Numbered from the stretch's first letter, positions 6,973 through 32,000 are shown. The stretch is DNA of 32,000 bases from Clostridia bacterium (GCA_017536445.1 JAFXHJ010000001.1:34300-66299); one strand, 5' to 3'. The notes: generated by a model from the sequence alone, not told the origin. Numbers and translations: made by a program.

Positions 6973-7332
6973 ATGAGAAGTAGAGATAGCAAACAAGCAA
7001 AAAGAGAAGCTAGACAAAGCAGAGTAAGAGCTACTGTAAAAGGTACAAGCGCAAGACCAAGACTTTGTGTTAACAAAAGCTTAACAAACATTTATGCACA
7101 ATTAATTGATGATGAAACTAGAACTACACTTGTTTCAGCCTCAACTCTTGACAAAGAGGTTACAACTAAAGCTTCTAACGTAGAAGCAGCAAAAGAAGTA
7201 GGAACTTTAATTGCTAAACGTGCATTAGAAAAGAAAATAGATACAGTAGTATTCGATAGAAATGGTTACTTATACCATGGAAAAGTTAAAGAATTAGCAG
7301 AAGCTGCAAGAGCAGCAGGACTTAAGTTTTAA
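6973..7332 (+). CDS. rplR: 50S ribosomal protein L18
   Basis: 119 aa: [20 protein letters not shown]...[26 protein letters not shown]. Confidence 0.97.
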
Positions 7333-7352
7333 GGTTAGGAGGAAAATAAACA

Positions 7353-7892
7353 ATGACTGATACTAAACAAGTTAAAGAAAACAGACAACGTAGAGAAAAA
7401 AGAGAAGACAGAACACCTGAATTCAAAGAAAAAGTTGTTTACGTTGGACGTGTTGCTAAAGTTGTAAAAGGCGGAAGAACATTTAGATTTAGCGTACTTG
7501 TAGTAGTTGGAGATGAAAAAGGAAGAATTGGTGTTGGTTCAGGAAAAGCATCAGAAGTTCCAGAAGCTATCAAAAAAGCTACAGATGCAGCTAAGAAAAA
7601 CTTAATAAAAGTTCCAGTTGTAAACGGAACAGTACCTCATGAATATACTAAGAAACTTGGTTCTTCAATCGTAATAATCAAGCCAGCTCCAGAAGGTACA
7701 GGTGTTATCGCTGGTGGTGCTGTAAGACCAGTTCTTGAACTTGCAGGAATTAAGAATGTTACAGCTAAAACACTAGGATCTCGTAATGGAAGAAACGTAG
7801 TACTTGCTACAGTTGCTGCATTACAAGAAATGAGAACAGTTGAACAAGTGGCAGCAGCAAGAGATATTACAGTAGAAAAATTATTGAAATAA
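7353..7892 (+). CDS. rpsE: 30S ribosomal protein S5
   Basis: 179 aa: [24 protein letters not shown]...[19 protein letters not shown], with a basic N-terminal extension. Confidence 0.96.
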
Positions 7893-27863: not shown

Positions 27864-28556
27864 ATGGTACTTAATTTTTTAGGAAGTGGTTCTGGTTTTG
27901 CAGATAATCACACCTCGGCGTATTTCACTACAAATGACAAGGAACTTGTCATTATTGATTGCCCGGTATCTGCTTTTCAAAAGTTGAAACGGATGAAACT
28001 TGGTGATTATGAACAAATCTATGTTTTCGTAACACATACTCATGGCGACCATGTTGGAGGACTTGGACTTTTTGCTCAGTATGTATTCTTTGTTTTGAAA
28101 AAGAAGCTTACAATCGTGGCGCCTTCTTCTGATGTGTTCGAAGATATTTTGACCATCATGAAAATTGAGGGCAACGACTCTGAGTGGTACAACTTGGAAC
28201 ACGTATTGAATCTTGCGGAGAAACCTTGGCTTAAAGGTTGCATTCCTACAGTTCATTCGCCGCAACTTGAAAGAAAATGTTTTGGATACAAGTTCTTCGC
28301 AAATGGCGAGACCATTATATATACCGGAGATACAGCTACGCTTAAGCACTTCCTTGAACGAATGGAAGATGTTAAGGAACTTTATGTAGATACTTCGGTA
28401 TATTACGGAATGATTCACCTTAAGCTTGAAGATGCATTGCCGAAATTTCTTGAACTTAACCAAAGTGGAGTAGAGGTATTCCTTATGCACTTAGACGATG
28501 CTAATGCCGCTGAAAAAATGGTTGCAAATTATCCGAAAATTAATGTTGTAAGATAA
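27864..28556 (+). CDS. MBL-fold metallo-hydrolase
   Basis: 230 aa: LGSGSG near the N-terminus, HxHxDH motif VTHTHGDHVGG, and a later YTGDT / H motif pattern. Confidence 0.85.
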   Translation: MVLNFLGSGSGFADNHTSAYFTTNDKELVIIDCPVSAFQKLKRMKLGDYEQIYVFVTHTHGDHVGGLGLFAQYVFFVLKKKLTIVAPSSDVFEDILTIMKIEGNDSEWYNLEHVLNLAEKPWLKGCIPTVHSPQLERKCFGYKFFANGETIIYTGDTATLKHFLERMEDVKELYVDTSVYYGMIHLKLEDALPKFLELNQSGVEVFLMHLDDANAAEKMVANYPKINVVR

Positions 28557-28572: not shown

Positions 28573-29622
28573 ATGATTTGTTTTGAAAGAAAAAAGATTG
28601 AGTCTTGGAGTACACCTAACGGTTGTATGGGACATATAACCTTGGAACGGTTAGCTAAACCCGAGACAGTCAAAGTTATGCTAAATGGTGAGGAAATAAT
28701 TCCTATATCATTTAATGCATTTGGACATCCTAACTTTAGCGAAGAGCAAGATATGCTCTTTATGTTTAAAAAGGAAGCATTAAGTAGAGCAGCTGGCAAA
28801 CATGTGAGTCTGGAAGCTGATGTTACATACGAAGAAAGGGTATTTGATGTACCTAGAGCATCTTTTGATACCAAAGAAGGCATTAATAAATCTATTACTA
28901 GCCTTAAGGGATTAAGAGAACTCTTGAACAACAGAAGTATGTACTTGAAGGTACATCCAAAAGAAAGACTTAATGAGTTTGTCATTTTCAATTGCTTTTG
29001 GCTTGATCAATTTGCTCAGGTAATGTCGCTTGAAAATCCGGAAAATACAGTTGGGATTAAGCTGCCGGATGTAGTAGATATGGACATTTTTAGGCGGTAT
29101 AATTCTAATTTGTCATTCTCTACTGGCGGCAGAGCTATTCCTACAGAAGATGCAGTATGTCCTTGCTGTGGAAAAGCTTTTACACTTGAAGATGTAAAGA
29201 GGAATACTGCGGTCTATGTAGAAGGTAAGTATTATCACAGAGAATGCAGATTAAATTACGAGCATCTCCATGAAATAGATAGACTTACACGAATTCTTAT
29301 GGACATTGTTTATGACTATAAGGATTACACATTTGATCTCTTACCGAATGGGTACTGCAGTAGAGGCTGCTGTAATCATCTTCCATGGCTTCTGTGTCAT
29401 ACGCCAGACGGCGATATTATCATCGGCTGGAGAAAAAGAGTAATTTCTATTGAATGGCAAGAAAACTATAAGCCTTTTGATATGAATGAACTTTTTGCGG
29501 ATGAGAATGTTACCAAGTGGATTGAAACAAATAAATGTGGTATCCATGCTTGGGGCAGAGAAAAAGCTTATGAGTATCTTAAGAAAGTGCGTGAAAAGGT
29601 CAATCCTGATTACAAAAAGTAA
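28573..29622 (+). CDS. hypothetical protein with Cys/His-rich C-terminal half
   Basis: 349 aa, 16 nt after the MBL gene with a GAGGAGG SD. Cys/His clusters: CPCCGKAF...YHRECRLNYEHLHE...CSRGCCNH..LCH...CGIH. No family recognised. Confidence 0.75.
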   Translation: MICFERKKIESWSTPNGCMGHITLERLAKPETVKVMLNGEEIIPISFNAFGHPNFSEEQDMLFMFKKEALSRAAGKHVSLEADVTYEERVFDVPRASFDTKEGINKSITSLKGLRELLNNRSMYLKVHPKERLNEFVIFNCFWLDQFAQVMSLENPENTVGIKLPDVVDMDIFRRYNSNLSFSTGGRAIPTEDAVCPCCGKAFTLEDVKRNTAVYVEGKYYHRECRLNYEHLHEIDRLTRILMDIVYDYKDYTFDLLPNGYCSRGCCNHLPWLLCHTPDGDIIIGWRKRVISIEWQENYKPFDMNELFADENVTKWIETNKCGIHAWGREKAYEYLKKVREKVNPDYKK

Positions 29623-29637
29623 TAACAAAAATAAAAC

Positions 29638-29671
29638 AAAACACCTTGAGAATTTTCTCAAGGTGTTTTTG
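29638..29671. terminator. bidirectional terminator between convergent operons
   Basis: ACACCTTGAGA / TCTCAAGGTGT stem, flanked by an A-run (5') and a T-run (3'). Confidence 0.8.
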
Positions 29672-29700: not shown

Positions 29701-30018
29701 TTAGAATCCAAGCTTCTTTTTGAATTCAGCGCGAATCTTCTTTTCGACTTTTTCAGTTACTTCTGCAGTAACTTCTTTTTCGATTTCGCTTCGCATGGTA
29801 GAAACAACTTCTGCTTTAATCTCAGCACGCATTTCAGCCTCTTTTTTCTTAAGCTCTGCTTCAATGTTTTTCTCGTACTGAAGAAGTCTTTTTCTTAAAC
29901 GATCGTTTTCGTCTTCCAAGCGTTTGTTCTCTCTTTCAAGAGAAGGGCTAGAATCACAGTTGCAATTGCAATTACATGCACTGCAAGCGCCACAGTTAGA
30001 GCCATCACAACTAGGCAT
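29701..30018 (-). CDS. Cys-rich N-terminus / charged coiled-coil protein (candidate radical-SAM substrate)
   Basis: 105 aa. AAAGGAGGA lies 8 nt upstream of the ATG, and the start overlaps the rSAM gene's 3' end by 8 nt. Sequence: MPSCDGSNCGACSACNCNCNCD (7 Cys in residues 4-21) followed by an E/K/A-rich helix. Confidence 0.75.
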   Translation of the reverse strand: MPSCDGSNCGACSACNCNCNCDSSPSLERENKRLEDENDRLRKRLLQYEKNIEAELKKKEAEMRAEIKAEVVSTMRSEIEKEVTAEVTEKVEKKIRAEFKKKLGF

Positions 30019-31033
30019 TATTTTGTCCTCCTTTATGGTAAAGAATTTTTTTGATCATATACAAGATAACAGCTTTCATAATGTCGCAAGTAAAGTTTTT
30101 ATTGATTTCTTTATTGTGCATTTTGCAACCGCCACCACATATATCTGCAATTGAACAATCCTTACACTTTTCAGGCAAAGTGTAGTTGTATCCGATTTTG
30201 TAAGCTTTTTGATCTTTCATTGCCTGTACGATGTTATCGCAAGTATAAATGTTGCAAATAGGATCATCGTTTACGAGTGTTTGACAAGGGAAAACATTAC
30301 CATCTACATCAATGGTTATAAGTTTTTCTCCAGCAGTACAGCCATCGTAGTTACTGTCAATTTTGATGTTGTTGAACTTGAAACGATGATAGATATCATA
30401 TCCGGAATTGGATAAAACATCTATAACCTCTTGCATCTTATCTAAGATAATCTTAGAATCGATTTCGCCGCAGAAGAAATGGTCAAGATAAACACCCCAG
30501 CCAAGATTTCTTTTTGCGACCCATTCAGCCAAAACATCTACATCGCCAAAACTCTTTTCATCTACAACAGTAGAAATATCAATGTTATTGATGCCTATTT
30601 TAAGCAACTTGTCTACATTGGCTTTAACGATTTCGGCAGAACTTTTTCCGTTAATAAAAGGCTTGGAATAAGAATAACCATCTAAGGAAATTCCAAAGCC
30701 AATTTTATCTTTGTATTTAGTAAAGAATTCAAGCATTTCATCCGTTAAAATGGTAAGGTTAGTAATAATGCTAACGAAACCTTTAGAACCGCATTTGTTT
30801 AAGAATTCTTGGACGAACTCTTTCCAATCATGAAAAACAAGAGTAGGTTCGCCGCCAGCTAAACGATATACAACAAAATCCAGTTCACCGGTGTCGAGCA
30901 TATGTAGAAATCTGCTGTTTATTTTGTCGTAGGTTTGCCTAGACATTTTTTTGTCGTTCCACTTGACATAGCAGTATGGACATCGAAGGTTGCATTGGTT
31001 AGTGGTAAATATCCACGGGGACATATACTTCAT
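30011..31033 (-). CDS. radical SAM / SPASM-domain peptide-modifying enzyme
   Basis: 340 aa: CNLRCPYC (CxxxCxxC), GGEPTL, and SPASM elements C-x12-G-x4-C (CTAGEKLITIDVDGNVFPC), CKDCSIADICGGGC and a trailing C. Confidence 0.9.
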   Translation of the reverse strand: MKYMSPWIFTTNQCNLRCPYCYVKWNDKKMSRQTYDKINSRFLHMLDTGELDFVVYRLAGGEPTLVFHDWKEFVQEFLNKCGSKGFVSIITNLTILTDEMLEFFTKYKDKIGFGISLDGYSYSKPFINGKSSAEIVKANVDKLLKIGINNIDISTVVDEKSFGDVDVLAEWVAKRNLGWGVYLDHFFCGEIDSKIILDKMQEVIDVLSNSGYDIYHRFKFNNIKIDSNYDGCTAGEKLITIDVDGNVFPCQTLVNDDPICNIYTCDNIVQAMKDQKAYKIGYNYTLPEKCKDCSIADICGGGCKMHNKEINKNFTCDIMKAVILYMIKKILYHKGGQNNA

Positions 31034-31046
31034 TTTGTAATCCTCC

Positions 31047-31265
31047 TTAATATCCTTTTACGATAGTTTCAAGCATAACATAGTAGTCGGTTCTATCGTA
31101 GGAATCATCCTTACCTACAACTTTTACGCCAAACATGCCGCGAATAAATGCGGCTTTTTCTGCCACGTTTTTGATTCTTGTGGTTTCTTCAATAAGTTCG
31201 TCTGCCTTTTCTGCACTAGGTGCAGTTTCAATTAATAGTTTGAGTTGCTCATGGGTTAAGTTCAT
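31047..31265 (-). CDS. small soluble protein, paralogue of the upstream membrane protein's C-terminal domain
   Basis: 72 aa after an AAGGAGA SD, with an ATGA overlap to the upstream gene. It aligns without gaps to residues ~165-230 of the 31262-31954 product (L..E.L..LI.TAP...A..IE..T.I....EK...I). Confidence 0.7.
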   Translation of the reverse strand: MNLTHEQLKLLIETAPSAEKADELIEETTRIKNVAEKAAFIRGMFGVKVVGKDDSYDRTDYYVMLETIVKGY

Positions 31266-31954
31266 TGTGTATTCTCCTTAATAGTATTTTTTGACATGAC
31301 TTGCTGTAAGATATCCATATAAATTTCTTCCTCGTCATTGAGAGAAACTTTTATAAGGGATTCTTTATAAAGTTTTTTGATTAAAAGATACTTCTCGCGT
31401 GTATCTGTTATACCTGTAACAGATTCAATAATATGATTTGCAATATCTGTGTTTGGTGCGGTAGAAATTAAGTGCATAAGTTCTTCTGAACTCAAGATTT
31501 CCGCCATATCTCCAGAAACAAATGTAGCTTTCTTTTTTTCTCTAGCACGCGCTAATCTAATTCTTCTTCCATCAAAGTTTGCGACAGTAATAATTATAAT
31601 GCTTATACCAATGTTTGTTATGTGTATCCAAAATAAAGGTAAAGCGATTCTACCACCGGTAGCAATTAATAGTGATGAACCAAAGAGCAACGCGTTAAAG
31701 ACAACAAGATTCTGGATTCTTATTAACATCTTCATATACTTTTCCATTGTTTTGTCTTCCTGTTCATCATATTGATTTCCAAGAAAAAGAGTCAAAACAT
31801 AATACATAGCAAAGTACAGTAGACCAACGAAAATACCAGACATTATAGATAGAAAAAGCATTTTTTCAGTCCGGACAAAGTAGTTACAAAATGTGCCATA
31901 GATGATTCCAAATATGCCAAATACAAGGGCCGTAATATAGTATCGTTTTTTCAT
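31262..31954 (-). CDS. 4-TM membrane protein with soluble C-terminal domain
   Basis: ATG 31954 follows AAAGGA (the track's TTG 31969 is less likely). Four hydrophobic helices, a basic RRIRLARAREKKK stop-transfer segment, then a ~85-aa soluble tail. Confidence 0.75.
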   Translation of the reverse strand: MKKRYYITALVFGIFGIIYGTFCNYFVRTEKMLFLSIMSGIFVGLLYFAMYYVLTLFLGNQYDEQEDKTMEKYMKMLIRIQNLVVFNALLFGSSLLIATGGRIALPLFWIHITNIGISIIIITVANFDGRRIRLARAREKKKATFVSGDMAEILSSEELMHLISTAPNTDIANHIIESVTGITDTREKYLLIKKLYKESLIKVSLNDEEEIYMDILQQVMSKNTIKENTQ

Positions 31955-32000
31955 ATGTAATCCTTTCAAAAATTATTTTTTCAGTATATTAAATTAACAT

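Follow-up and report, generated by a model that had tools for sequence, protein, structure and literature searches.

The window, as the whole 32,000-nucleotide stretch of DNA from a Clostridia bacterium analysed here is called (GCA_017536445.1, JAFXHJ010000001.1:34300-66299), carries on its minus strand a gene for a radical S-adenosylmethionine (rSAM)/SPASM enzyme of 340 aa (30011..31033) and, directly downstream, a gene for a cysteine-dense protein of 105 aa (29701..30018, stop codon included, according to the open reading frame (ORF) list and the sequence), which is the subject of this report. The stop codon TAG of the rSAM gene (30011-30013) falls within the small ORF, resulting in an 8-nt gene overlap, and the Shine-Dalgarno sequence AAGGAGG (30027..30033, minus strand), identified by reading of the sequence 8 nt before the ATG (30016-30018), is located within the 3' end of the rSAM gene. 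The strong ribosome binding site and the translational coupling pointed out in an earlier note on this DNA are thus present, and a GGAGG-type Shine-Dalgarno sequence occupies the equivalent position in most of the related loci listed.

The product of the small gene, MPSCDGSNCGACSACNCNCNCDSSPSLERENKRL...KKKLGF, opens with MPSCDGSNCGACSACNCNCNCDSSPSLE and continues as a long charged stretch. The ORF translation confirms the cysteines previously placed at residues 4, 9, 12, 15, 17, 19 and 21, which are followed by D22 and an SSPSLE linker. On the minus strand, the gene is composed of the near-invariant head MPSCDGSNCGAC (codons 1-12, 29983..30018), the candidate modification site on the basis of head-versus-tail identity, codon variation and disorder predicted by AlphaFold2; an extra cysteine run SACNCNCNCD (codons 13-22, 29953..29982), which is lineage-specific as judged from its variability or absence in relatives; and the SSPSLE linker with a long helix (codons 23-105, 29704..29952), delimited by the AlphaFold2 helix and periodicity analysis. 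Approximately 30 nt past the stop codon, a strong hairpin terminator with a 14-bp stem and a T-run (29638..29669, no strand assigned), which is common to the convergent gene, closes the operon.

An invariant head on variable helical tails

A protein search returned 12 relatives, all opening with MPSCDGSNCGAC and with otherwise divergent tails, and approximately 45 clusters at 50% identity that carry the head were recovered when 1.84 billion representative proteins were searched with a profile. On the DNA level, a degenerate 36-nt pattern for MPSCDGSNCGAC, for which the chance expectation is about 5e-4 in a 596-Gb genome collection, matched in 3 of 185,579 species genomes, all metagenome-assembled genomes (MAGs) of uncultured Clostridia and one with an identical protein, as well as on five IMG/VR viral contigs and, with codon 7 left free, on 11 metagenome contigs. 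As the pattern is found far above expectation and every match is the start of an ORF with a helical tail, the ORF in the window is not a chance frame. The pair of head protein and rSAM enzyme is rare, but clearly under selection.

Among 52 representatives, residues 1-12 show a mean pairwise identity of 90.5% (median 100%) versus 33.8% for the tails. The head codons differ freely at synonymous sites, and both TCN and AGY are used for Ser7, from which it follows that the peptide, rather than a DNA or RNA element, is under selection. Constraint falls on the unit MPSCDG[S/A]NCGAC from Met1 onwards, in which the non-cysteine residues P2, S3, D5, G6, N8, G10 and A11 are as invariant as the cysteines, while the core cysteines 4, 9 and 12 are invariant among standard heads with the exception of a few divergent heads. 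Past Cys12 the sequence is variable, reading SAC, AC, ACACN, NCNC or SSNC or being free of cysteines, and the number of head cysteines ranges from two in one degenerate member and three in minimal heads to seven, the maximum, in the window protein. The CNCNCNCD run, which the earlier note had pointed out, is consequently a lineage-specific elaboration, with MPSCDG[S/A]NCGAC being conserved instead. Rare head variants are MTSCDG..., MPSCNGSNCGAC, MPSCDG[A/G]NCGAC, MPSCDGSNCS[A/V]C, MPSCDG[S/A]GSNCSSNCSAC, MPSCDACGAC..., MPSCTQGACPC... and the degenerate MPSCDWTEYEDAC. In every member examined the cysteine segment begins at residue 1-4, in agreement with the leaderless, extreme N-terminal position described before, and the layout of sacti/ranthipeptide precursors, with a leader ahead of a C-terminal core, is not found.

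The tails belong to non-homologous helical classes of 51-180 aa with a net charge from -8 to +17. They comprise long EIRPEVE-type repeats in relatives of the window lineage, a short class of 59-86 aa that can be described as 'TEYVHLDKKE plus zipper', a class in which a strongly basic C-terminus comes after a zipper, and longer forms reaching 180 aa. The architecture shared by all members is the invariant head, a short linker and an amphipathic helix of approximately 30 residues, the remainder being optional. With such unrelated sequences (34% identity), lengths and charges, a function of the long E/K helix as a specific recognition element, as had been proposed, is not supported, whereas the universal amphipathic helix after the head may have a loose follower role.

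The structure prediction for the small protein by AlphaFold2 (12 family members) gives a disordered head and a long helix: residues 1-22 are coil with a predicted local distance difference test (pLDDT) score below 50, and residues 23-103 form a single unbroken helix with a pLDDT above 90. Segments modified by enzymes are usually disordered. The description of the approximately 80 residues after the linker as heptad-like holds for about residues 27-58, to which a hydrophobic periodicity of 3.5-3.6 is confined, but not for residues 59-105, which are a period-4 E/K-[IVM] repeat. Against Pfam, NCBIfam and PHROG, the small protein gave matches to Leu_zip, MreC, LeoA and head morphogenesis proteins that are sub-threshold and represent coiled-coil noise, and the head matched no metal-binding family in Pfam or NCBIfam. 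Among matches from the representative library, P0166 and P0171 possess tails of the EIRPEVE-repeat class without an MPSCDG head, and P0133 (3048 aa) and P0165 contain long KAEV/KAEL period-4 repeats resembling the distal tail; by this sequence likeness the tail repeat exists independently of the head. The motif string was found in none of the papers searched, and literature on phage SPASM products, follower peptides with radical SAM enzymes, and prophages, ranthipeptides or coiled coils contained no description of the family.

The radical-SAM partner and its genomic settings

A tblastn search with the window enzyme located an rSAM homologue directly upstream and on the same strand at 43 of 43 head-gene loci, approximately 25 of which are distinct. 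From the end of the match to the ATG of the head gene, distances range from -4 to +33 nt, with overlaps of 8 or 14 nt being typical. Every examined locus is paired, and a widespread occurrence of homologues without an adjacent rSAM gene, which the earlier note had named as one of the observations that would speak against a link, is clearly not seen. The enzyme family consists of about 100 clusters at 46-100% identity, followed by a sharp fall to at most 35%, and a head gene also lies downstream for the members with only 46% and 53% identity. In an all-against-all comparison of the neighbouring ORFs of 25 loci, only the enzyme and the head protein recur; no protease, exporter or other third gene recurring with the pair was found among these neighbours.

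Partial exceptions to the direct pairing are loci L025 and L026, where a head-less paralogue of the tail sits between the rSAM and the head gene, and loci L005 and L042, which carry only a truncated enzyme gene upstream of the head gene. The truncated enzymes are matched only over residues 108-328 (L042 3926-4681, on a 332-kb viral contig) and 219-340 (L005 2-514/897), which could stem from splitting of the gene, insertion of an intron or homing endonuclease, a deletion or a faulty assembly. At L025 (GCA_947627295, CANQVJ010000003.1), tandem genes for paralogous helical proteins (7013-7384 and 7489-7827) follow an rSAM gene whose product is 53% identical to the window enzyme, the first protein lacking a cysteine head and the second displaying the degenerate head MPSCDWTEYEDAC, with an IS-type transposase gene upstream; the copy of the system at this locus is possibly in decay or diverging.

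The window enzyme matches Pfam Radical_SAM (PF04055, E 1e-16) and SPASM (PF13186, 21.7 bits with a cutoff of 21.5; TIGR04085, 45.7 bits with a cutoff of 27) and has no N-terminal recognition domain as known from enzymes of peptides that are ribosomally synthesised and modified after translation (RiPPs); its paired homologues are 317-354 aa in length. In 21 aligned sequences, C14, C18 and C21 of the rSAM motif CX3CX2C (residues 14-21) are invariant, and so are the seven SPASM cysteines (232, 250, 290, 293, 299, 303 and 316), in keeping with the definition of this domain as CX9-15GX4C ... CX2CX5CX3C ... C with two auxiliary clusters. All 21 enzymes start 1-7 residues, usually 3-5, ahead of an invariant SPW motif, which, with the rSAM motif at residue 14, leaves no room for a PqqD-like recognition domain, and Pfam and NCBIfam identified no separate PqqD-like recognition protein among the neighbouring ORFs.

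With respect to curated families, the best match in NCBIfam is the PapB ranthipeptide maturase (NF047865) with 93.3 bits (E 1.6e-26) versus a cutoff of 340, while anSME (TIGR03942) scores 66 bits versus 349, the SCIFF maturase (TIGR03974) 46 bits versus 425, and YhhB (66 bits), CcpM (55), FxsB (51) and CefB (49) are all far below their cutoffs. The best PDB sequence match is CteB (E 7e-7). The AlphaFold2 model of the enzyme (pLDDT 87, predicted template modelling (TM) score 0.88) matches rSAM folds, for which a partial TIM barrel is characteristic, and is closest to the thioether synthase CteB, to anSMEcpe and to the triceptide maturase ChlB, with whole-query TM scores of 0.72-0.74 for anSMEcpe and 0.72-0.75 for ChlB. 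On cultured phages and plasmids no close relative was found, the best identities being 27-28%, and all BFVD matches carry generic names only. Relatives of 28% identity are encoded on plasmids of Clostridium argentinense and Paraclostridium sordellii in classical clusters with several rSAM genes, an S8 peptidase and an ABC (ATP-binding cassette) transporter, and in P. sordellii (L047) a precursor consisting of a leader and a cysteine-rich core is part of the cluster as well.

Sister and outgroup enzymes show other neighbourhoods. At L048 (1838-5008) and L051 (1489-5008), sister enzymes without recognition domain, 39-49% identical to P0101, have no cysteine-rich partner and are adjacent to a helix-turn-helix (HTH) and M78-peptidase pair or to a second rSAM gene and an integrase gene, as is typical of defence or mobile islands. 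In [Clostridium] fimetarium (FOJI01000014.1, L021 4908-5882, minus strand), an outgroup enzyme of 35% identity adjoins a 324-aa surface-type protein with a signal anchor, Rib/Big_3 and SH3 domains, which ends in about eight SNCT repeats (PSNCTSNCTSNCTSNC...) resembling the SNC units of the heads. A general rule of SNC units was not upheld, as there is no such neighbour at the sister loci L048 and L051, and is retained solely as an unconfirmed lead.

In the window, enzyme and head protein are the last two genes of an apparent four-gene operon, which is located on a 175-kb Clostridia MAG scaffold matching the window. Its first gene (31262..31969, minus strand) encodes a predicted membrane protein of 235 aa with weak, sub-threshold matches to Pfam membrane families and is lineage-specific and not recurrent; the second, a 72-aa ORF (31047..31265, minus strand), is likewise lineage-specific and not in the conserved module. 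Both share a 43-residue stretch, 'L..L..LI.TAP...A..', of 37% identity, located in the C-terminal part of the 235-aa protein. The 72-aa ORF was considered as a stand-alone recognition protein and dismissed, since it has no PqqD-like or other family match and is absent from the other loci. At the MAG locus L014, an extra ORF of 236 aa lies between the 72-aa ORF and the membrane-protein gene.

The operon is flanked by a glycogen phosphorylase gene on one side and by a convergent cysteine-rich ORF, a metallo-beta-lactamase (MBL)-fold hydrolase and a DUF1385 gene on the other side, within a wider setting downstream of truA, xerD-like and ribosomal-protein genes. The glycogen phosphorylase of the window scaffold, past the window end (L044 6231-8618), is called in two pieces of 538 aa and 160 aa, which suggests a frameshift or pseudogene. 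The convergent ORF (28573..29622, plus strand) encodes 349 aa with the motifs CPCCGK... and CSRGCCNH..., has no Pfam or NCBIfam match and only a weak match to phrog_9298 'radical SAM domain protein', and is kept beside the module in L014 and L044. As a third component of the system it was rejected, because it has no pairwise similarity to the phrog_9298 gene of the phage locus L040 and nothing else recurs. The MBL-fold hydrolase (27864..28556, plus strand; phrog_392, E 1e-26), with sub-threshold matches to anti-Pycsar Apyc1 and cyclic-nucleotide phosphodiesterases, may by these matches be a phage-derived or anti-defence-type gene.

A search of viral contigs with a single protein yielded no loci, while the alignment-based search did. 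On the viral contigs L040 and L043 the pair is located beside genes for an HNH protein and the small and large terminase; immediately upstream of it lies a second, unrelated rSAM gene (phrog_9298, E 2.5e-86, 313 aa; L040 2376-3317, L043 2971-3912), and this gene and the pair directly precede the HNH-terminase module of the phage. At L041 the pair is located between genes for single-stranded DNA-binding protein and an MT-A70-type DNA methylase, at L038 right after a nucleoside deoxyribosyltransferase gene, and at L039, L042 and L023/24 on 290-332 kb contigs of small same-strand genes. At L013 the surrounding DNA was recognised, by eye only, as a mobilisable element that carries a relaxase-like gene. 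On the jumbo-phage-like contigs of L039 (5214-5582) and L042 (4899-5255), the gene directly after the head gene encodes a conserved P-loop-like protein of 118-122 aa (GLGKTTYC) without family match. With respect to known anti-phage defence systems, in PADLOC-DB 2.0 the rSAM core matches pVip models only (60 bits, residues 9-157) and the small protein gives coiled-coil noise, and such an assignment was dropped as nothing beyond the generic rSAM core is recognised.

Possible functions of the pair

The coupled gene pair, the head conserved at all positions, the full SPASM enzyme with nearest relatives that form cysteine-derived cross-links or oxidise protein cysteines, the missing recognition domain and the lack of processing and export genes in combination make a dedicated enzyme-substrate pair most likely, and we see about an even chance that the head is cross-linked in place and the protein stays intact with the head on its helical stalk. 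The 105-aa protein would then be the dedicated protein substrate of the upstream rSAM/SPASM enzyme in a self-contained two-gene module. In RiPPs the leader is usually conserved and the core variable; the reverse pattern of an invariant head with hypervariable tails suggests that the enzyme, devoid of a recognition domain, reads the disordered MPSCDG[S/A]NCGAC head itself, whereby the loosely conserved amphipathic helix next to the head may aid by non-specific docking or oligomerisation. The 5'-deoxyadenosyl-radical chemistry would most likely link head cysteines to nearby side chains, forming sacti/ranthipeptide-type thioethers. By analogy with the Cys-x3-Asp units of PapB, the candidate pair conserved most widely is Cys4-x3-Asn8; it is found in most heads and kept in the P2T, D5N, S7A and S7G variants, and the degenerate head of L025 displays Cys4-x3-Glu8. 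The modified head would neither be freed by a dedicated protease nor be exported by a dedicated pump, but act inside the cell on a stalk that is probably self-associating. The carriage in phage early or DNA-metabolism regions and on mobile islands of gut Clostridia suggests a role in the conflict between phage or mobile element and host, and the module probably functions in such an interaction. More tentatively, and with clearly less confidence than in the enzyme-substrate relationship, the pair would be a phage-borne system for modifying a whole protein and no natural-product pathway, providing a cross-linked or otherwise reactive knot on about twelve N-terminal residues of an oligomeric helical stalk, the intact product of which serves as an anti-defence or host-takeover factor in the infected cell. 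If true, this reading would constitute a new functional class of rSAM-modified proteins with a new topology, an invariant N-terminal core and a hypervariable helical tail.

Several observations weigh against modification of the head by the enzyme. The scores of the enzyme against curated families are far below the cutoffs, which makes thioether chemistry an analogy only. The candidate Cys4-x3-Asn8 pair is missing in the MPSCTQGACPC..., MPSCDACGAC... and MPSCDGSGSNC... heads, and metal-binding peptides have a composition similar to that of the head (C, S, N, G, A, D). In the sister clade of 35% identity, two of three contexts examined have no cysteine-rich partner, and enzymes of the wider group may have other substrates.

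The latter points feed into an alternative, which we regard as unlikely, in which the head binds zinc, copper or an iron-sulphur cluster, possibly shared between the chains of an oligomer, and the small protein is an electron or cluster donor or a regulatory subunit of an rSAM enzyme that targets a nucleotide, DNA or a host protein. CxC and CxxC spacing among small residues as in metallothionein-type or cluster-binding peptides, the invariance of Cys 4, 9 and 12 in standard heads, the location of phage copies among DNA-metabolism genes, one tail class with a strongly basic end that could bind nucleic acid, and the two partner-less sister-clade loci are all consistent with such a role. Minimal heads with only three cysteines and the one with two are nevertheless hard to align with it, the invariance of P2, S3, D5, G6, N8, G10 and A11 exceeds the needs of metal ligation, and no metal-binding family is matched by the head; moreover, the substrates of full SPASM enzymes are mostly peptides or proteins, and a shared role in nucleic acid binding is unlikely given that the tails are acidic or basic depending on the member. 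Quite improbable in our estimate is also a follower-type RiPP, in which the rSAM-modified head is cut by a host or general protease and freed as a cross-linked peptide of 12-22 residues, for example upon phage lysis, to act as a toxin or signal, with the helix as a C-terminal follower that binds the enzyme as in bottromycin. A core beginning right after Met1 with a helix next to it in every member, the universal amphipathic segment of about 30 residues with its 3.5-3.6 periodicity, ABC exporter genes near one locus and the distant relatives in classical clusters for exported peptides speak for this scenario, as does ChlB which, according to the title of PDB entry 9gm3, still binds the precursor leader region although it lacks a recognition domain. 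However, neither a protease nor an exporter is recurrently linked to the pair, no cleavage motif is conserved past the head, the tails differ in sequence, length and charge, unlike recognition sequences, and an invariant core with a hypervariable 'follower' is the opposite of what RiPPs usually display. Of the two options offered in the earlier note, a C-terminal helix for recognition or scaffolding, or a protein that stays intact and bears its modified or metal-binding head on a stalk, the second thus fits better.

A toxin-antitoxin-like or abortive-infection pair has very little probability. Here, the rSAM enzyme would be a toxic effector and the small protein a pseudo-substrate inhibitor, its head blocking the active site up to the time of degradation. 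Translationally coupled two-gene modules on mobile elements and variable islands and the sister enzymes beside HTH/M78-peptidase and integrase genes would fit such a pair, but no known defence or toxin-antitoxin family is matched beyond the generic rSAM core, type II toxin-antitoxin systems do not typically have the enzyme gene first, and carriage in lytic-type and jumbo phages agrees poorly with abortive infection.

Comparison with described systems

To our knowledge, rSAM/SPASM enzymes acting on peptides have nearly always been described to bind an N-terminal leader via a recognition domain and to modify a C-terminal core. The closest likeness of the module is to PapB/PapA (freyrasin) and CteB/SCIFF, where a full-SPASM rSAM enzyme is likewise encoded beside a short segment dense in cysteines and otherwise composed of small residues. 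PapB is the best NCBIfam match of the window enzyme and CteB its best PDB match in sequence and fold, and the PapA unit CSANDA (Cys-x3-Asp) resembles Cys4-x3-Asn8 of the head, which is a sequence analogy only. The hallmark of PapB-family maturases is a side-chain thioether from Cys to Asp/Glu in CX3D/E units of the substrate. PapB, with a recognition domain comprising residues 1-86, modifies leaderless peptides and works with this domain deleted in vitro (PMC12715619). This activity sets a precedent for the direct reading of a short cysteine motif by such an enzyme. On the other hand, PapB has a recognition domain while the window enzyme has none and, with 93 bits versus a cutoff of 340, falls short of the PapB family; in addition, the cysteine segment of the window family begins at Met1 without a leader and continues into a helix of 40-160 residues, no protease or exporter accompanies the pair, and the module is phage-borne. 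The SCIFF precursor is about 45 aa in length, with a leader and a C-terminal core of six cysteines. Assignment to SCIFF (ScfA/ScfB) fails, with 46 versus 425 bits for the enzyme, no match of the small protein to a precursor-family model and an N-terminal cysteine segment.

The anSMEs are SPASM enzymes of about 340-370 aa without recognition domain that modify a cysteine in a short motif of a full-length protein, and they match the fold of the window enzyme over the whole query (TM 0.72-0.74). The head of the window protein, however, lacks the C/S-x-P/A-x-R motif, the partner is a small helical protein and not a sulfatase, and the enzyme is below the cutoff. The bottromycin precursor shares the topology only, in that the initiator Met is directly followed by the modified segment, and this by a helical extension at the C-terminus. 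Bottromycin is produced by a YcaO enzyme and class B rSAM methyltransferases, its follower is conserved and cleaved off, and the product is exported. The enzymes of the two systems are thus unrelated, and the tail of the window family is hypervariable and without linked processing genes. The triceptide maturases ChlB, YhhB and FxsB are SPASM enzymes of similar size to the window enzyme, and ChlB, with 375 aa and a whole-length fold match, has as judged from these values no N-terminal extension past the match. All scores to triceptide maturases are nevertheless below the cutoffs, and triceptide substrates are aromatic-x-x motifs behind a leader, whereas the head is free of aromatic residues.

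With scores below the cutoffs, no leader, no recognition domain and no sulfatase motif, the module would work in the manner of a sacti/ranthipeptide or anSME-type system, but fails the membership tests of every named family. What is new is the combination of an rSAM/SPASM enzyme devoid of a recognition domain with a leaderless N-terminal cysteine head on a helical tail in a phage-borne two-gene module. The family departs from the described rSAM/SPASM systems in the missing recognition domain, the core at the Met, the variable helical C-terminus and the absence of protease and exporter, and offers with two small genes a compact case for leader-independent substrate recognition, with the invariant 12-mer as a potential minimal tag for enzymatic cross-linking. 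As many SPASM enzymes are annotated in phage genomes, the carriage of the pair by phages whose hosts are anaerobes of the gut, with contigs of 290-332 kb among them, provides a good entry point to the roles of phage rSAM enzymes.

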